DNA of 64,000 nucleotides. Source: Escherichia phage fDHCT2. The stretch lies in the sequence record OR427838.1; one strand, given 5' to 3'. Under the pieces are notes generated by a model. The model made no database searches, was not told the origin of the DNA, and worked only from the letters and a program-made list of their open reading frames with translations. Positions 13,061-19,788 of this stretch are shown here, one piece after another (the first letter of the stretch is position 1; each line of letters opens with the position of its first letter). A program made the position numbers and the translations under genes.

Positions 13061-13261
13061 ATGGGTAGTATTTTTTACCAAATCTGGAAATTGTCCGAAA
13101 AGAAAGACAAGAAAATGATGTTAGGTTTTCTTGCGCTAGACGTGTTCCTTTGGAATCTTCTAGTAGTCCCTGTAGCCGCTAGCCAAGGGATAATTTTACC
13201 AGCGGTTACAATGGAACACGTATTAAGCATAATTGGATTCTTTAGCGGAGTTCCTGCCTAA
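13061..13261 (+). CDS. small hydrophobic protein, plus strand
   Basis: 66 aa; canonical RBS ACAGGAGGATAAC-ATG; no convincing minus ORF in this gap. Confidence 0.45.
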   Translation: MGSIFYQIWKLSEKKDKKMMLGFLALDVFLWNLLVVPVAASQGIILPAVTMEHVLSIIGFFSGVPA

Positions 13262-14286
13262 ATTTTGGAATATTTAGAAAGTCTCATTTTGGCCATTAGA
13301 CCTTGGGCTATATTAGCTTTCATATATGTCAGTACATCATTTATATCAGCTTTATCTTTCATAATCATATCATTTATATCTTTAGAAGGCCATGGAGCCT
13401 TGTCCCAGAATAGAACCCTTTCGCCAGCATCAACTAATCGTTGCATACGCTTAATTGTGTCAGGATGGCGGGGTTCATTGTCCATTACCCAGGCACGAGT
13501 TTCTTTACATGGAACTATAGCCAAATCTAACGACCCACCAGTAATTGCTATTGCATTCGGTACGAATAATGAATCGATAGGACCTTCCATTACCCAGACC
13601 AATTGACGTTCGTCGACTGTATCCATTCCATATATTTTTGTAGCTTGGTCATGAGCTTTTATTGTAATATATTTTTGTGGAGCATCTTTACGCAAGGCTC
13701 GACCCTGAAAACTTTCTATTTGTTTATCCTTATTGAAAATAGGAATAACCAAACGAGGCTCAGGCATTTCTTTAGAATAGGTCCCTGGATTCACAGAGTT
13801 CACCAATGCCGGCCATTCTTTAGTAAACCACAGCCGGTTCCATTTGTTTTCAGGAATGCAACGTAGTGTTACATATTTGATAATAGGATGGTCCTTCGGC
13901 ATTCTATCTAATCGTTCACAGAAATTAAGCTTTTCGATGACAGGCATCTTAGCTTTAATTTTTTCAGATATCTCCACCTTAGGTGCAGCTTGTCTCCCGA
14001 ACGATTGCTCTTTATGTTTCTCAAGAATATATTCTCGATATAAATCCGGCTCATATTCGTATAGATACTTCTTAATTCCTGCTGAATAGTCGCAGTTAAA
14101 ACAGTGCAGCATTACGGAGCCATCATTAGCCGGATAGGCCCAAAAACGAGCTTTGTTCTCATCTTTTTGGGAGTCGCCACATACACGACAACGACAGTTT
14201 AATTTAAAATCACTACCAGTTACTTGTCTGAATTTAGGTTGGTAATTCAAGGCACGTACAGCAAATTCTCTATCGACATATGACAT
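13258..14286 (-). CDS. 61: DNA primase gp61
   Basis: 342 aa; zinc ribbon CRCRVCGD...HCFNC; matches remembered T4 gp61 length and motifs. Confidence 0.95.
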   Translation of the reverse strand: MSYVDREFAVRALNYQPKFRQVTGSDFKLNCRCRVCGDSQKDENKARFWAYPANDGSVMLHCFNCDYSAGIKKYLYEYEPDLYREYILEKHKEQSFGRQAAPKVEISEKIKAKMPVIEKLNFCERLDRMPKDHPIIKYVTLRCIPENKWNRLWFTKEWPALVNSVNPGTYSKEMPEPRLVIPIFNKDKQIESFQGRALRKDAPQKYITIKAHDQATKIYGMDTVDERQLVWVMEGPIDSLFVPNAIAITGGSLDLAIVPCKETRAWVMDNEPRHPDTIKRMQRLVDAGERVLFWDKAPWPSKDINDMIMKDKADINDVLTYMKANIAQGLMAKMRLSKYSKI

Positions 14287-14324
14287 TATTTTTCCTTGGG
14301 CTCTAAATTAATAGAGCCATTATA

Positions 14325-14486
14325 TCATTCGTTTTCGGATTTTTCTTTACGCTTTTTAGATGGGATTTGTTCAGGCCCTTTATTGACGACTGCGCCTGAG
14401 GTAGTTCCGGAGGCAATAGCAGTAGGATTACCACCTGCATCGCCTGCGACCATATCTTCGTTCATAACTTCTTTAAAAGATTTCAT
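14325..14486 (-). CDS. small lysine-rich protein (53 aa, hand-called) behind a late promoter
   Basis: MKSFKEVMNEDMVAGDAGGNPTAIASG...KKRKEKSENE; RBS GGAG. Confidence 0.45.
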   Translation of the reverse strand: MKSFKEVMNEDMVAGDAGGNPTAIASGTTSGAVVNKGPEQIPSKKRKEKSENE

Positions 14487-14499
14487 AGGCTCCTGGCCT

Positions 14500-14507
14500 T
14501 ATTTATA
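14500..14507 (-). promoter_or_regulatory. late promoter TATAAATA
   Basis: minus TATAAATA 13 nt upstream of ATG 14486. Confidence 0.5.
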
Positions 14508-14712
14508 TTACGAAAATAGCTTTATCACCATTTGCATCAGTGACTTCATAGGTATCTTCGTGGTAAAGTGGAATAATCCAAGTCACACCATCATCAGCAA
14601 TAATATGGATAGCTTCTTGGTCTTTTGATATGATTTCATATTCTTCGAATAACTCGAATACAGAAATCTTAGAGCCCGTACACATTGCACTCATATTGTT
14701 CCCTTCTTTCAA
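14503..14712 (-). CDS. hypothetical small protein
   Basis: 69-aa ORF. Confidence 0.45.
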   Translation of the reverse strand: MKEGNNMSAMCTGSKISVFELFEEYEIISKDQEAIHIIADDGVTWIIPLYHEDTYEVTDANGDKAIFVI

Positions 14713-14890
14713 TCAGTTGGCGATGGGCCTTTTTAAGTTTACGAAGCTGGCGCTTAGTCGGCCGTGCAACATAAGCTTGAGTAGTTACTCGCCCAAAAAC
14801 ACCGTACTTAGGTGAAGGAGAATCGATAAAGACTTCCCACTGGCAGGAGTAACCATATACCGCTTTAGAGAATTGAGTTAAAACAAACAT
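14669..14890 (-). CDS. small basic protein, PTKRQ-motif family
   Basis: 73 aa; ...RPTKRQLRKLKKAHRQL...; RBS GAGG. Confidence 0.5.
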   Translation of the reverse strand: MFVLTQFSKAVYGYSCQWEVFIDSPSPKYGVFGRVTTQAYVARPTKRQLRKLKKAHRQLIERREQYECNVYGL

Positions 14891-14891
14891 A

Positions 14892-15326
14892 TTAACCTCG
14901 ATTCATAAAGGCATTAAAAATCTGGTCGTCAATTGAATAAACCGGAGCTTCCAGAATTTTCAACAGACTGTTTTTGATATACTTGCTAGGGATATCCATA
15001 TTAACGCGGCCGTTCAATTCGTTGTCCGGGTGGATATCTTTAAATTCAAACCCATCAAACTCAACCTTGTCCGGAAACCCGTCAGCGAAAAAATAAACCA
15101 ATTGGTGCATTGCATTGAGCGAAAATAATTTAGACTTAACAGCAATAAGTTCTTGCCAATGGTTTAATTCTCTGTTAAGAAGTTTATGAGCCATTGTAAT
15201 TCGATCATCGCTATCAACAAGAAAATAACCTAGGTATTGGTGGTCGTCGCTCCAAAACATCCTGTATGCTTGTGCATTCGGATTTTTACAACGAAGCTTT
15301 TTAATAACCAAAGTTCTGTTAATCAT
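14892..15326 (-). CDS. hypothetical protein
   Basis: track ORF trimmed to ATG 15326 (MINRTLV...) to remove overlap with sp. Confidence 0.5.
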   Translation of the reverse strand: MINRTLVIKKLRCKNPNAQAYRMFWSDDHQYLGYFLVDSDDRITMAHKLLNRELNHWQELIAVKSKLFSLNAMHQLVYFFADGFPDKVEFDGFEFKDIHPDNELNGRVNMDIPSKYIKNSLLKILEAPVYSIDDQIFNAFMNRG

Positions 15327-15327
15327 T

Positions 15328-15621
15328 TTACTCACCTGTAACCTCTTTAACGATGTTTTTGTTATCGAAATTAGCGTCACAATACAAAACATAGTTGTAC
15401 TGCATAACACCTGTTGAAGCTAATTGGTCGGACACTTCTTTAACCATGTCAGGACGGTCACGTTTAGTGATGTTCATGATATCGGCATAAATCTGATGTT
15501 CAACATCAGTTTGGTCGGCAGTCATAGACCACTCACAAAGGTCTTTATCCAATCCGGCCGTTACTGGAGCTGTACCACATGATGCTACGGTAAGAATTGC
15601 TGCGATTAATAACTTTTTCAT
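15328..15621 (-). CDS. sp: spackle-like periplasmic protein
   Basis: 97 aa with signal peptide; T4 sp position between 61 and 41. Confidence 0.7.
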   Translation of the reverse strand: MKKLLIAAILTVASCGTAPVTAGLDKDLCEWSMTADQTDVEHQIYADIMNITKRDRPDMVKEVSDQLASTGVMQYNYVLYCDANFDNKNIVKEVTGE

Positions 15622-15649
15622 TTCAATCTCCTCGTTAGTTGATAGGTCT

Positions 15650-15679
15650 ATAGTATCACCACCATAGACCGTTGTAAAC
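15650..15679 (-). promoter_or_regulatory. T4-type early promoter (sp)
   Basis: minus GTTTAC (15674-15679), 18 nt, TGATACTAT, AGACCTATCAAC. Confidence 0.65.
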
Positions 15680-15680
15680 T

Positions 15681-15920
15681 TTATTTTAACGAATCTTCCA
15701 AATAAATTTTACGGAATTTACGTTTTGTCTGACGAATCTGACGTTTAGTAGGCTTCACAGGAAATTCGAAGAACTCCACGTATTCCTGTTCATAATCATT
15801 ATGACCTACTGAAAGAACTAGTTCCCAGCTGCTTACGGTGCGTTGGATAAACATATTATGCTTACCAAAAGATTTATTCCAAAAAGAACTAGGAGTTGGC
15901 TTCATTAGTACAATATTCAT
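15681..15920 (-). CDS. small basic protein, PTKRQ-motif family
   Basis: 79 aa; ...KPTKRQIRQTKRKFRKIY... Confidence 0.5.
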   Translation of the reverse strand: MNIVLMKPTPSSFWNKSFGKHNMFIQRTVSSWELVLSVGHNDYEQEYVEFFEFPVKPTKRQIRQTKRKFRKIYLEDSLK

Positions 15921-16061
15921 TTATTCCTCGCCTTCATGTTTATGAGCAATTTCTTCGAATTCGTTGTCACAGTCTATACAGGTTGCATTGTCCCAAGCAT
16001 CAAATACTGCTTGGTCTTCGCGGACCGAACAACCACATACTACACATTCTACTTCTTCCAT
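15921..16061 (-). CDS. small zinc-ribbon protein (46 aa, hand-called)
   Basis: MEEVECVVCGCSVREDQAVFDAWDNATCIDCDNEFEE...; stop abuts next ATG. Confidence 0.45.
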   Translation of the reverse strand: MEEVECVVCGCSVREDQAVFDAWDNATCIDCDNEFEEIAHKHEGEE

Positions 16062-16265
16062 TTAGATTTCCTCAATGCGGGCATCATATTCAAAAACTTT
16101 ATTGTCATTAACAAAGGCTTTCACCAGTGCATTATTCACTTCTGCATACTGCACTGTAACCCATTCAATCATTTTTTGGTCACTAACATCCAGCGCAGTT
16201 TCTTTGGTAAACATATTACCGTTTTCAAACCAACCAATAAATACTACGATCTCTAATTTAAACAT
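16062..16265 (-). CDS. Dmd-like small protein, copy 1 (tentative)
   Basis: 67 aa; ...FIGWFENGNMFTKE...WVTVQYAEVNNALVKAF...; T4 dmd position; RBS GAGGAAATCTAA-ATG. Confidence 0.6.
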   Translation of the reverse strand: MFKLEIVVFIGWFENGNMFTKETALDVSDQKMIEWVTVQYAEVNNALVKAFVNDNKVFEYDARIEEI

Positions 16266-16460
16266 TTAGATTTCCTCAATACGTGCATCATGTTCATAAA
16301 CTTCTACGTCATCAACATAGGCCTTAACCAAAATACTATTGACTTCGGCGAATTGGGTAGTCACCCACACAATATCATTTTCACGTACTGAAGCTTCTTT
16401 GGTAGTGGTATCACCGTTATTAAAACAGCATACAAATTTTACCTTAACCAATTTAGACAT
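16266..16460 (-). CDS. Dmd-like small protein, copy 2 (tentative)
   Basis: 64 aa; same ...ARIEEI C-terminus; identical RBS/start junction. Confidence 0.55.
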   Translation of the reverse strand: MSKLVKVKFVCCFNNGDTTTKEASVRENDIVWVTTQFAEVNSILVKAYVDDVEVYEHDARIEEI

Positions 16461-16778
16461 TTAGATTTCCTCGCAGAAGGCCCATTCAGCATGATAAACC
16501 GTAGCGCCTTTAGTATCATTTAAACAAACCACATCCACCGGAGCAATTACACGATAAAGACGAGGTTCTCCTCCCACCGAACGAGCAGCTCGTCCAGCAT
16601 AAATCTTAGCCAAACCAATGTCCTCAGTAAAGAACACACGATTCAAGTTTTTCTTACGACCCGTTTCAGACAGAACTCCTGTTTCCTCAGGAGGACAAAG
16701 CATATTACCAATATTAGCAACACTACAACTTCCATGGTAATACACTTTATATTCCGCTTTACAGTCGATGGTTTTCAT
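16461..16778 (-). CDS. hypothetical protein
   Basis: track start 16790 is TTG; ATG 16778 with RBS GGAGAACAAA; motifs YYHGS and RLYRV. Confidence 0.5.
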   Translation of the reverse strand: MKTIDCKAEYKVYYHGSCSVANIGNMLCPPEETGVLSETGRKKNLNRVFFTEDIGLAKIYAGRAARSVGGEPRLYRVIAPVDVVCLNDTKGATVYHAEWAFCEEI

Positions 16779-16802
16779 TTTGTTCTCCAAGTTGATAGGT
16801 CC

Positions 16803-16831
16803 ATAGTATCATGCCTACAGGAGAAGTAAAC
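16803..16831 (-). promoter_or_regulatory. T4-type early promoter
   Basis: minus GTTTAC (16826-16831), 17 nt, TGATACTAT, GGACCTATCAAC. Confidence 0.65.
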
Positions 16832-16840
16832 CATTAAAAC

Positions 16841-16862
16841 AAAAAAGGAGCCGAAGCTCCTT
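16841..16862 (-). terminator. intrinsic terminator downstream of gene 41
   Basis: minus AGGAGC-TTCG-GCTCCTTTTTTG; overlaps gp41 stop. Confidence 0.7.
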
Positions 16863-18300
16863 AAAATTTGATAGATGCTGCTAAATCATCTAAATCGCTT
16901 CTATTAACACGCGACTGGCGATTGACCTCTGCTTGGCGGTTCATTTCACCTGTGGCCTCACGAACGGTGTTCACTGGGCCTGGGTTGGAATCGTCTTCAA
17001 CTTCGTACCAACGTTGATTTCCTTTCTTAACACCAATCTTAAATTTGTTGTAGTAGCTCTTATCACCATAACGAGATTTAAGCTGCTTAACCATCTGCAT
17101 ACCCATCTGAGCAAATTCTTCTGTCTCGACCACACCCAACATGAAGTCTGCGGTATGTGCAATACCAAAGGATTCAGCAATATCAGCCATATCGATTTCG
17201 GCTGCAACGTTCGCGCCACGAGTAGTCTGGGCTGCAGTCCACAGCAATAATTTCTTCTCTACTGCAAGTCCACGTAGTTCTTCAGCAACCATCTTAATCA
17301 ATCCGTAACTGTTTTCAGAGAAAACTTTCGTACGAGACGATGCACAGATGGCCAAGTAGTCAACGATAACGACCTGTGGGACAAAGTTTTGTTTGAGCTT
17401 GTATTCGTTTAATAATGCACGGAATGTATCGGCATTCGCACCGCCGGTAGGATACTGTTTAATCTTTAAACGACCTAAGGTAGCAGTTGAACGCCATTTA
17501 TCCATCTTAGCTTTATATTCAGGCCACGAGACATGACCATCATCGATATCATCCAGTGATACATCCAGAAGGTTGGCATCGATACGCTTAGCACATACTT
17601 CCTCTGCCATCTCCATGGAGATATAAAGAACATCGTAACCCGATTGAAGGTAATCAGCAGCCAATGAACAAAGACCAAGAGACTTACCTACGTTTGTTCC
17701 TGCTAACAATACGTTTTCAGTACCAAACTCGGCGCCGCCCTTGGTAATCTTATTCAGAATATTAAGACGGAATGGAACCTTACGTGCTTTATCGGAATAA
17801 CTTTTGAATCGTTCTTCATAGTCATCCATCCAGTCATGACCTAATTCAGAATCGAAACAAATCGATAATGCATCACGCATGATATCTGGAATAGCACCAA
17901 TACCTGGAAGTTTTCTATTTTGTTGCTCAACCGGAAGGTCGGCATTAGTTTGGATTTCAATGATTTTTGAAGTTGCATTATACATCGCTGCTTTCTGAAC
18001 GTATTTCTCCGTCTCTTTAACCAACCATTCTTGGTCTTCAGGTCCGGCATTCAGCGAACTTAAAAGCTCTTTAGCGCCTTGGTGTTCAACTTCTGAAAGC
18101 GTACTGTTATCTAATGCAATGCTCAGCGCGTTCTTAGAAGGCACTGCATTATATTCATTGACATGTTTTTTAATTTCTTTGAAAAGGGTCTTTGCAGGAC
18201 CCTGGTCAAAATAAGAATCATTCATATAAGGCCAGACCTTAGTGAAATAATCACTATTGCCTAACAGTTGAGCCAAAATAGTTTCTACCACTTCCACCAC
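16861..18300 (-). CDS. 41: replicative DNA helicase gp41
   Basis: 479 aa; Walker A GTNVGKS; DnaB-like; T4 synteny. Confidence 0.95.
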   Translation of the reverse strand: MVEVVETILAQLLGNSDYFTKVWPYMNDSYFDQGPAKTLFKEIKKHVNEYNAVPSKNALSIALDNSTLSEVEHQGAKELLSSLNAGPEDQEWLVKETEKYVQKAAMYNATSKIIEIQTNADLPVEQQNRKLPGIGAIPDIMRDALSICFDSELGHDWMDDYEERFKSYSDKARKVPFRLNILNKITKGGAEFGTENVLLAGTNVGKSLGLCSLAADYLQSGYDVLYISMEMAEEVCAKRIDANLLDVSLDDIDDGHVSWPEYKAKMDKWRSTATLGRLKIKQYPTGGANADTFRALLNEYKLKQNFVPQVVIVDYLAICASSRTKVFSENSYGLIKMVAEELRGLAVEKKLLLWTAAQTTRGANVAAEIDMADIAESFGIAHTADFMLGVVETEEFAQMGMQMVKQLKSRYGDKSYYNKFKIGVKKGNQRWYEVEDDSNPGPVNTVREATGEMNRQAEVNRQSRVNRSDLDDLAASIKF

Positions 18301-18614
18301 CTCTTAGATTTAATTTTATCCAGTTCTTCTTGTATTTGCATTGTAACACATTTTTCTACATGAAGCGCTAGCTCTTCTTTTCGGTCTTCGGAAGGTGTTC
18401 CGAAATCAACCGACACTTTTCCATCTTTCTCAATAACAATATTCATCACATAAACGATGTGAGCAGTGCCATCGGGTAAAGTAAGCATAATTTCCTGCTT
18501 AACCGAACCCATTGACTTACGGATTATATCTAATGATTTCTCATAATAACGAGGGTCACTAGGACCCTCTTCGGTATCTTTAACAAAATTATCTAAATCA
18601 GATAAATCAGTCAT
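18285..18614 (-). CDS. hypothetical protein at gene 40 position
   Basis: 109-aa ORF between uvsX and 41. Confidence 0.55.
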   Translation of the reverse strand: MTDLSDLDNFVKDTEEGPSDPRYYEKSLDIIRKSMGSVKQEIMLTLPDGTAHIVYVMNIVIEKDGKVSVDFGTPSEDRKEELALHVEKCVTMQIQEELDKIKSKRWWKW

Positions 18615-19788
18615 GATCGCTCACAAAATTCATATTTTCTAAATCGTTTTCTATATCAGCGGCGCTTTGGGTATTTCCACCTAATTTAACAGCAACGTTC
18701 TTAGAGACACGAGAGTTAATAAGGTCGTTCACCGCATCGTCAACTTCTTTAATAGAATTAATTGCACCGAGCTTATACTTATTCTCGATTGCTTCACGGA
18801 ACGGAGCATGTTTAAACAGCGGTCCCCAGAACTCGACACAATCGGTAGCTTTAGCACGCCATGATTTTTCTTCTTGAACCATTTCACCTGTGGTTTCGTC
18901 AAGGAATGCACGATTATACCAACCAGCTTTAGGTTTCACAACAAAGCCAATATCAGTAGCCATTTCAAGCAATCCACTGAATGGGTCGATACCACCTTCA
19001 AAGTTCACAGTAATTGGGAACGTTGATTTCTCTTTAACAGTACGAGATTTTTCGGCCTTCAGGGTGAAGTCATAACCAGTGAGCTCGGTGCCATCTTTAA
19101 CCTGACGTTTAGAGATAAAGAATACGGTAGAAGCAGAGTACAGAATACCGGTACCGCCACCCATAATCTCTTTAGGATACATTCCACCAATTTCCATAGC
19201 CGTATGGTTAATTGCTACACAAGGGATATCCTTGATGGTCAGATAAGGTGTTACGATACGGAACAGAGATTTCAGTGACTTAGCACGGGTCATATCACCT
19301 ACAACTTTCTCGTTCAAAGCATCTTCGGTTTCTTTCTTAGAAGCGGTGTTACCGATGGAGTCGATAAAGATAATAACCTTTTCACCACGAGTAATTTCTT
19401 CTAATTGGTTGGTCATGTCAACCTTCAGTTGTTCAACTGACTGGATTGGCGTATGAACCACACGTTCCAGGTCAACACCCATTGAACGGAAATAAGATTC
19501 TGAAGCACCGAACTCAGAGTCATAGAACAAGCAAATTGCGTCTGGATATTTCTTCATATATGCTGCAACCATGGTAAGTCCAAACAATGTTTTAAAGTGT
19601 TTAGATGGAGCAGCAAAGATTGTCAAACCTGATTGTAAGCCTGCATTCAACGCACCACCCAATGCAATATTCAGCATAGGGATACGAGTAGGAACTTCGT
19701 CACGACCATTAAACAATTTGGATTTGGTCAGGTCGGCAGTCATTTTAGAAGTAGAAGCTTTAATCAAACGGGATTTTAAATCAGACAT
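18607..19788 (-). CDS. uvsX: UvsX RecA-like recombinase
   Basis: 393 aa; MSDLKSRLIKASTSK... near-identical to remembered T4 UvsX N-terminus. Confidence 0.95.
   Translation of the reverse strand: MSDLKSRLIKASTSKMTADLTKSKLFNGRDEVPTRIPMLNIALGGALNAGLQSGLTIFAAPSKHFKTLFGLTMVAAYMKKYPDAICLFYDSEFGASESYFRSMGVDLERVVHTPIQSVEQLKVDMTNQLEEITRGEKVIIFIDSIGNTASKKETEDALNEKVVGDMTRAKSLKSLFRIVTPYLTIKDIPCVAINHTAMEIGGMYPKEIMGGGTGILYSASTVFFISKRQVKDGTELTGYDFTLKAEKSRTVKEKSTFPITVNFEGGIDPFSGLLEMATDIGFVVKPKAGWYNRAFLDETTGEMVQEEKSWRAKATDCVEFWGPLFKHAPFREAIENKYKLGAINSIKEVDDAVNDLINSRVSKNVAVKLGGNTQSAADIENDLENMNFVSDHD

Follow-up and report, generated by a model that had tools for sequence, protein, structure and literature searches.

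Two Dmd-family genes side by side

Dmd is the textbook phage-encoded antitoxin mimic, and to our knowledge the T4 protein is the only Dmd that has been studied functionally. Here we describe two adjacent genes of this family in a 64-kb stretch of the genome of Escherichia phage fDHCT2, a member of the genus Dhakavirus (JS98-like T4-type coliphages). This whole stretch is called the window, and all coordinates refer to it. We named the upstream gene dmd-B and the downstream gene dmd-A; like all genes in this part of the window, they lie on the minus strand. An earlier note on this DNA had described a pair of abutting open reading frames (ORFs) of 64 and 67 amino acids (aa) between sp and gene 41, and both the pair and its position were found exactly as described (Table 1).

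We compared both proteins with family profiles and solved structures. The Pfam Dmd family (PF17587) was matched by Dmd-A at 72 bits and by Dmd-B at 58.3 bits (cutoff 27), and PHROG 2102 (Dmd) with E values of 5e-32 and 9e-29, respectively. A phmmer search of all PDB sequences recovered the RB69 Dmd (5i8j; E 2e-21 for A and 1e-11 for B) and the T4 Dmd from its complex with LsoA (5hy3_B; E 1e-16 and 4e-13), and among all PDB sequences neither copy had a significant match beyond these two. Dmd-A is 67% identical to 5i8j, and a fold model was made for copy B alone. The AlphaFold2 model of Dmd-B (predicted local distance difference test score, pLDDT, 92.4) adopted a beta-beta-alpha-beta-beta fold and matched 5hy3_B with a template modelling (TM) score of 0.95 and a root-mean-square deviation of 0.7 Å in Foldseek, and 5i8j_A with a TM score of 0.84; residues 61-64 (IEEI) were of low confidence and poorly ordered. 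At E<1e-3 Foldseek returned Dmd structures alone, with no other PDB match at E<0.3. The likeness to T4 Dmd, which the earlier note had proposed tentatively, was thus borne out by the Pfam, PHROG and PDB matches and by the fold of the B model, and the alignment to T4 Dmd that it called for gave identities of 57% (A) and 48% (B). Both ORFs are real and intact, and belong to the Dmd family of phage antitoxins of ~60 aa. The family is tiny, with ~7 short clusters at 50% identity in a profile search of 1.84 billion representatives.

The two proteins share 36 of 67 residues (54%; BLASTP E=2e-21), and the genes are 66% identical over codons 1-60, with 27 of the last 30 nucleotides (nt) matching. A shared C-terminus and a shared QYAEVN core had been claimed for them. 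Both proteins do end in DARIEEI, but the core of B carries QF (QFAEVN) in place of QY; the core sequences are QYAEVNNALVKA in dmd-A and QFAEVNSILVKA in dmd-B. We then aligned nine canonical Tevenvirinae Dmds and defined their invariant columns in T4 numbering. These include F8, G10, W11, F12, M17, F18, T19, K20, D28, W31, Q35, A37-E38-V39-N40, L43-V44-K45-A46-F47, D50, K52, E55, D57 and R59. Dmd-A retains every one of the invariant residues. Dmd-B retains 18 of the 29 invariant columns and differs at L3, G10, W11, M17, F18, T33, V39, A42, F47, K52 and V53. Its replacements include C-C at G10-W11 (G-H in phages that carry B alone), T-T/A at M17-F18, I/V at A42, Y at F47 and E at K52; the helix motif is kept, with W31, Q35, AEVN, LVKA, D50, E55, D57 and R59. 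Copy B is an undescribed divergent Dmd subtype, yet one already in GenBank and partly annotated. Dmd-B is 100% identical to the UniRef entry 'Antitoxin, Escherichia phage fDHCT2'.

The pair belongs to a string of five genes (16778-15681) made up of an ADP-ribosyltransferase (ART)-like gene, dmd-B, dmd-A, the Cys-rich orf46 and a gp61.4/tifA-like gene. There are zero intergenic bases in this string, and each stop codon within it directly adjoins the next ATG. The counterparts of the last gene in relatives are annotated as gp61.4, and T4 gp61.4 is TifA, an inhibitor of ToxN (PMC9391042). A slot between gene 41 and sp/gene 61, beside a gp61.4/tifA-type gene, is the canonical position of Dmd, and the gene order around dmd matches in JS98, RB69 and HY01. 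The sequence anatomy is that of one early transcription unit with stop-start coupled genes. The putative promoter of the block was read by eye and scores under the threshold of the sigma-70 scan. An Rfam search of positions 14000-19000 for structured RNA gave zero matches. Two antisense ORFs on the plus strand (16075-16269 and 15936-16256) were taken as shadows of the coding strand, the homology sitting in the minus-strand ORFs.

Table 1. Features of the dmd locus and its surroundings, in window coordinates
Feature	Position	Strand	Basis or remark
Gene 41 helicase	16861-18300	-	ORF list and Pfam
Intrinsic-terminator-like hairpin 3' of gene 41	16845-16862	-	AAGGAGCTTCGGCTCCTT, then T run
Putative T4-type early promoter of the five-gene block	16803-16831	-	GTTTAC (16831-16826), 17-nt spacer, TACTAT (16808-16803)
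ADP-ribosyltransferase-like ORF, 105 aa	16461-16778	-	JS98 orf34 / RB69 ORF040c family
Linker copy 1, GAGGAAATCTAA followed by ATG	16458-16472	-	End of ART-like gene to start of dmd-B
dmd-B, 64 aa, divergent Dmd-family protein	16266-16460	-	Pfam, PHROG, PDB, AlphaFold2 model
Linker copy 2	16263-16277	-	End of dmd-B to start of dmd-A
dmd-A, 67 aa, canonical Dhakavirus/Gaprivervirus-type Dmd	16062-16265	-	Pfam, PHROG, PDB
Linker copy 3	16059-16073	-	End of dmd-A to start of 46-aa ORF
46-aa Cys-rich ORF (orf46), CxxCxC...CxxC	15921-16061	-	phrog_13952, function-unknown family
gp61.4-like ORF, 79 aa, last of five abutting genes	15681-15920	-	Pfam DUF7279, E 9e-20
Early-promoter-like site ahead of sp, at the downstream end of the block	15650-15678	-	TTTACA, 17 nt, TACTAT; promoter scan
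Spackle (sp)	15328-15621	-	Pfam T4_Spackle, E=1e-42
Primase gene 61	13258-14286		Window ORF and Pfam

Slot states and linkers in related phages

We next compared the locus with those of related phages. The 1.6-kb region is 88-93% identical to many Dhakavirus phages, and the dmd slot in this genus proved dimorphic, holding A alone (most phages), B alone, or B followed by A. The A-only state was read directly in JS98 and Esco_phi_B-01, and from the search tables JS10 and most other Dhakaviruses appear to be single-copy A-type. The B-only state was read directly in IME08 and WG01, and the search table puts it in ~13 distinct phages in all, including Bp7 and QL01. The B-then-A state occurs in three GenBank phages, KIT01, ABTNLsp5 and 04086, and in the window phage. 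In pairwise alignments the indels were precisely one cassette long: the 195-nt B cassette is missing from A-only genomes and the 204-nt A cassette from B-only ones, while the flanks of the slot are 90-99% identical between the compared phages.

The earlier note had called the pair a tandem duplication. Two Dmd genes do stand in tandem, but a recent local duplication was rejected on their 54% protein and 66% DNA identity together with the occurrence of each copy alone in related Dhakaviruses.

A tblastn survey of GenBank found 798 Dmd matches in 794 records, and two matches in only four of these ~795 Dmd-bearing records. Three of the four are KIT01, ABTNLsp5 and 04086; the fourth may be a different arrangement or belong to another genus. 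B-type Dmd at >=80% identity (at least 80%) was present in 22 records, RefSeq duplicates included, with all others below 60%, and A-type Dmd at the same level in 58. B-type Dmd has been found only in Dhakavirus-type genomes so far. Metagenomic data contained B-type proteins (P0136 on 18 contigs, and P0144), and the exact B protein of the window was absent from the contig index. A related-locus search of IMG/VR for more tandem loci gave only eight known isolates, all single-copy, and the junction of a dmd end, linker and dmd start had zero matches in JGI metagenomes and in IMG/VR with a strict exact pattern that misses variants.

In KIT01 both dmd genes are already annotated as 'discriminator of mRNA degradation'; copy B is mislabelled 'translational repressor protein' in ABTNLsp5 and is unannotated in 04086. 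In the literature on KIT01, ABTNLsp5, 04086, fDHCT2 and Dmd together with Dhakavirus, we found no paper discussing two dmd genes or the B-A array, and no published toxin-neutralisation data for Dhakavirus Dmds. The array is a rare but already sequenced stacking of two counter-defence genes of known type, and not a new kind of system.

As for isolation sources, B-type carriers are often derived from poultry or ducks, as exemplified by WG01 and QL01 (duck faeces), vB_EcoM_FB (poultry farms), ABTNLsp5 and KIT01 (manure or soil of chicken farms), and Bp7 and LQ5 (E. coli O78). A-only phages include JS10, dhaeg and dhabil (propagated on K-12), MN04 (an enterotoxigenic strain) and CLB_P2 (strain 55989). 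This pattern is anecdotal and confounded by the isolating laboratories.

The joints between the genes were then analyzed. The sequence GAGGAAATCTAAATG had been noted as an identical junction that also opens the next gene, and the 64 kb hold exactly three copies of it, all of them at junctions: those that end the upstream ORF, copy B and copy A. Shuffled sequences gave an expectation of 0.02 matches, and three were reached in 0 of 100 shuffles. In origin this 15-nt linker is not a feature of Dmd but the 3' end of the ART-like gene (...AFCEEI, then stop). Dhakavirus and SP18 conserve this end, and RB69 has it in a nearly identical, overlapping form. The last codons of the ART-like gene are GAG GAA ATC TAA, in which the GAG of the linker encodes E103. 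The Glu-Glu codons GAGGAA place a Shine-Dalgarno sequence (GAGG) 8 nt ahead of the next ATG. The linker would supply both a ribosome-binding site for the following gene and a substrate for recombination.

Both Dmd genes end in ...GATGCNCGNATTGAGGAAATCTAA, which encodes the tail DAR-IEEI. Each cassette is flanked by direct repeats of 15 nt, or of 18-27 nt when the neighbouring tail codons are included. When linker and gene start are taken together in the tandem phages, 22 of the first 25 nt agree between B and A. In KIT01 and SP18 the Dmd-A tail is DYRSNEK followed by stop, and there an intergenic region and sp replace orf46 downstream. Since the Dmd tail changes with the downstream neighbour, the tail travels with the downstream module. 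Dmds of the T4, RB69 and HY01 types end in R-G and a stop codon (AGAGGATAA), likewise encoding a Shine-Dalgarno sequence for gp61.4. The orf46/gp61.4 junction is a fourth variant, GAGGAATAA followed by ATG, and is again of the Glu-Glu-stop-start kind. As a side observation, orf46 lies between dmd and gp61.4 in most Dhakaviruses, and KIT01 and SP18 carry neither orf46 nor gp61.4.

Divergence, selection and a proposed role for the pair

The relationships of the ~60-aa Dmd proteins were assessed with a neighbour-joining tree with bootstrap and an identity matrix. Dmd-A groups with the Dmd of Gaprivervirus SP18 (88-91% identity) and is 97% identical to the JS98 Dmd, 70% to HY01, 67% to RB69 and 57% to T4. 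The B sequences form a long-branched clade (bootstrap 100%) that is 47-56% identical to A and to the SP18, HY01, RB69 and T4 Dmds. Seven of the matches of B to A lie in the shared tail; with the tail excluded, A and B share 29 of 57 positions. Because A and B diverge as much as Dmds of different phage genera do, and each occurs alone in the same slot, they are best described as two old alleles or paralogues that have been stacked.

Selection was estimated by the Nei-Gojobori method as the ratio of nonsynonymous to synonymous divergence (dN/dS). Pairwise dN/dS was 0.09-0.54 for dmd-A, apart from one pair at 0 (Nd=0). For dmd-B it was 0.04-0.65; an additional pair reached 1.35, a value based on just two synonymous differences. 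Both copies are thus under purifying selection. Among the B copies of the tandem phages dS was 0.05-0.43, indicating that the array is no fresh accident. Chance similarity or a spurious ORF was rejected on the family, PDB and fold matches together with dN/dS below 1.

T4 Dmd blocks RnlA and LsoA (PMC8266594, citing Otsuka & Yonesaki 2012 and Wan et al. 2016), and T4 dmd is conditionally essential on rnlAB hosts. In the window phage, a single early promoter and coupled translation of the whole five-gene string would lead to both Dmds being made together immediately after infection, along with the ART-like protein, the orf46 product and the gp61.4-like protein. By homology with the T4 protein (structure 5HY3), each Dmd would bind 1:1 to a toxin of the RnlA/LsoA family, in the groove that separates the TBP2/NRD domain of the toxin from its HEPN/DBD domain. 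Such toxins would be released when the labile host antitoxin decays after shut-off, and Dmd binding would prevent the RNase from degrading phage mRNA. Since positions that canonical Dmds hold invariant are changed in B, A and B probably prefer different toxin variants. Carrying both would then widen the set of permissive hosts, and it is plausible that the second copy extends neutralisation to more toxins.

With regard to origin, A and B are probably old alternative cassettes at one locus. The B-A array would have arisen by unequal recombination at the shared 15-nt linker, and the same repeats would permit loss of either copy. As a precedent, T4 amplifies this very dmd-tifA locus in tandem by recombining at microhomologies of only 6-10 bp (PMC9391042). 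Overall, two co-expressed early antitoxins with different RnlA/LsoA-family specificities, stacked from old cassettes, is the explanation towards which we lean, with modest confidence.

Several points weigh against this explanation. The difference in specificity between A and B is one that we infer purely from their sequences, and the substitutions specific to B may reflect repacking of the core and not changes at the interface. The B proteins of tandem phages (FVCCFNN) and of B-only phages (FVGHFAN) form separate clades (bootstrap 89% and 98%), so the array was not recently made from a sampled B-only lineage. The deep nodes of the tree have bootstrap values of 0-8%, and with these nodes unsupported, horizontal import, ancient duplication and accelerated evolution of B are inseparable. 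Finally, the array is rare, with three GenBank phages and no hit in IMG/VR or the JGI metagenomes, which would equally fit a weakly useful or neutral state.

An older duplication would leave the function as proposed and change only the history. Here dmd would have been duplicated in situ in the Dhakavirus ancestor, the upstream copy B would have diverged fast and asymmetrically, and the A-only and B-only phages would be later deletions between the linker repeats. The restriction of B to Dhakavirus-type genomes and the B-A order of all four arrays are consistent with this history. The B copies of the arrays are monophyletic (89%) with dS up to 0.43, which fits one old array, and the linkers with adjoining gene starts are still similar between B and A in the tandem phages. 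With T4 recombining at 6-10 bp and flanking repeats of 15-27 nt here, cassette loss should be easy. However, with the tail excluded, A and B (29/57) are no closer than B is to the T4 and RB69 Dmds (47-50%), whereas A is 88-91% identical to the Dmd of SP18 and 67-70% identical to those of RB69 and HY01. Because A is so close to the Dmds of other genera, the duplication must predate those genera or have been followed by strong acceleration. The neighbour-joining tree also places B outside all Tevenvirinae Dmds, though without bootstrap support. We regard this history as possible but rather doubtful.

The rarity of the array could also mean that it is a near-neutral by-product of linker recombination between co-infecting A and B phages, giving at most an extra dosage of antitoxin. 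Only 3 of the ~795 Dmd-bearing GenBank records carry it, the locus is demonstrably recombination-prone, and either allele alone evidently suffices for many phages. Against this stand the purifying selection on both copies within the tandem phages (dN/dS 0.04-0.65) and the dS range of their B copies, which indicates long co-retention even though the flanking repeats should quickly delete a useless copy. Moreover, headful packaging limits T4-type genomes, in which deletions elsewhere offset any extra DNA (PMC9391042). A by-product of this kind is distinctly unlikely.

Neighbouring genes, significance and known counterparts

The protein encoded immediately upstream of dmd-B was characterized in the same way. 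Among 33 homologues, H15 and Y60 are invariant and E103 nearly so. The best PDB matches of its model (pLDDT 86) were the Arr structures 2hw2 and 9iaf (probability 1.00, TMq 0.62), followed by Tpt1 and ART toxins, and Pfam Arr-ms was matched with E=0.029, below cutoff. The upstream gene product is a minimal ADP-ribosyltransferase-fold protein of 105 aa that is Arr-like (rifampin ADP-ribosyltransferase). The family comprises >120 homologue clusters, spread over T4-like phages that infect many hosts, and the ART-like protein is 100% identical in seven Dhakavirus loci. Its gene abuts or overlaps dmd in Dhakavirus (JS98), SP18 and RB69. HY01 has dmd without the ART gene, gene 41 being followed directly by dmd; presumably T4 has the same arrangement, also with no ART gene. 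Conversely, no Dmd neighbour was detected at three ART loci (Acinetobacter, Proteus-type and phT4A phages), where hmmsearch with the Dmd profile gave only E>0.3. The adjacency of ART and Dmd is therefore obligate in neither direction.

An ART of the p0068 family and Dmd have been predicted to form a phage type II toxin-antitoxin pair (Iyer, Burroughs, Anantharaman & Aravind 2022; PMC9503650). One Dmd of the window might accordingly restrain or partner the phage's own upstream ART while the other copy blocks host RnlA/LsoA. Besides the published prediction, the ART fold of the upstream ORF with its conserved H, Y and E, and the adjoining or overlapping genes in Dhakavirus, Gaprivervirus SP18 and RB69, speak for such a division of labour. 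However, Dmd occurs without ART in HY01, ART occurs without a detectable Dmd neighbour at the three loci above, and the family sizes are unlike (>120 ART clusters versus ~7 for Dmd at 50% identity). In addition, the seven loci share an ART that is 100% identical but differ in the Dmd beside it (A, B or both, at 54% identity); this is the opposite of partner co-evolution. We consider this division of labour very improbable. The constancy of ART while Dmd varies argues that Dmd diversification is driven from outside the phage.

Other features of the region were also observed. An early-promoter/5' untranslated region (5'UTR) module of ~44 nt occurs as a direct repeat at both ends of the five-gene block (15615-15658 and 16772-16811). 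The two copies are 1153-1157 nt apart and show 95%/77% identity (-10/5'UTR module), with a 22-nt core, AGTTGATAGGTC(T/C)ATAGTATCA, that is 95% identical. Arbiol, Comeau and Krisch reportedly proposed in 2010 that promoter cassettes mediate modular shuffling in T4-type genomes, and the repeat in the window resembles such cassettes. The gap between gene 41 and the ART-like gene is variable: an extra ORF of 125 aa (~375 nt) is present in ABTNLsp5 and RB69 (712-1089 and 758-1132, each numbered within its own locus), SP18 carries goF and another ORF there (485-1114 of its locus), and the window has none. The entire interval from gene 41 to gene 61 behaves like a zone of cassette exchange.

Nearby lies another pair of distant paralogues, which consists of the gp61.4-like ORF and a 73-aa ORF on the minus strand (14669-14890), two genes past sp, which matches Pfam DUF7279 with E 1e-18. 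The two ORFs share the basic motif PTKRQ(I/L)R (BLASTP E=1e-4), and the phage may thus carry two TifA-family proteins as well. Beside sp, an ORF of 144 aa (14892-15326, minus strand) belongs to the JS98 orf30 family. It has a weak, sub-cutoff match to the C-terminal 14 residues of Pfam AdfA (E=0.007, 16 bits, cutoff 27), AdfA being anti-DarT factor A (T4 gp61.2). The match may be fortuitous, or the ORF may be an AdfA relative that has diverged or been truncated.

Two deeply diverged Dmd alleles, single or stacked within one genus, amount to a natural experiment on antitoxin-toxin specificity and host range. The locus further shows that short coding linkers doubling as ribosome-binding sites can serve as joints for counter-defence shuffling. 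Practical relevance is modest: Dhakaviruses are used in therapy and biocontrol, for example against avian pathogenic E. coli, and their repertoire against toxin-antitoxin systems may influence host range. A bolder proposal, which we put forward only tentatively and think rather unlikely, is that B-type Dmd is a specificity-shifted antitoxin for a host toxin beyond the reach of canonical Dmd and that the 15-nt linker is a plug-and-play cassette joint. If so, the target of B would be a divergent RnlA/LsoA-family RNase or another HEPN RNase. This target might be common in E. coli and Salmonella associated with poultry, the source of many isolates that carry B. Taken from the end of the ART-like gene that holds the catalytic Glu, the 'EEI-stop-ATG' linker would let cassettes be swapped, stacked or dropped with translational coupling kept, and the array would be a natural, stable counterpart of laboratory dmd-tifA amplifications.

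Compared with known systems, the window genes belong to the same Pfam family as T4 Dmd (gene 61.5; 5HY3 chain B), with the same fold and a similar size. They also share its slot downstream of gene 41 and its early-operon context beside a gp61.4/tifA-type gene. In contrast to the single gene of T4, two are present here, at 57% (A) and 48% (B) identity to it, and an ART-like gene and the 46-aa ORF are interposed. The tail is DAR-IEEI in the window copies versus DCRG in T4, and B lacks G10-W11 and M17-F18, which are invariant in canonical Dmds including that of T4. The closest solved relative of Dmd-A is RB69 Dmd (5I8J; 78 bits, 67% identity). RB69 (ORF040c-dmd-61.4) shares the ART-like gene immediately upstream of dmd, but it has a single dmd, and its ART-dmd junction is a 4-nt overlap (ATGA) and not a TAA-ATG linker.

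The nearest counterparts of the whole array are KIT01 (AP019521; KIT01_035/034), ABTNLsp5 and 04086, in which the B-then-A tandem lies at the same locus; their B copies are 89-97% and their A copies ~88-93% identical to those of the window. KIT01 differs from the window in lacking orf46 and tifA and in the A tail DYRSNEK. The ART(p0068)-Dmd pair (PMC9503650) has the same neighbourhood, in that a small H-Y-E ART immediately precedes Dmd in entero-phages, but one Dmd per ART. Laboratory amplification of T4 dmd-tifA (Srikant, Guegler & Laub 2022; PMC9391042) likewise produces tandem counter-defence copies at this locus, and recombination at short direct repeats is the mechanism proposed for both. 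The amplified copies in T4, however, are identical two-gene units, selected for tifA dosage and unstable (PMC9391042), whereas the array of the window consists of anciently diverged dmd genes alone, stably retained in nature.

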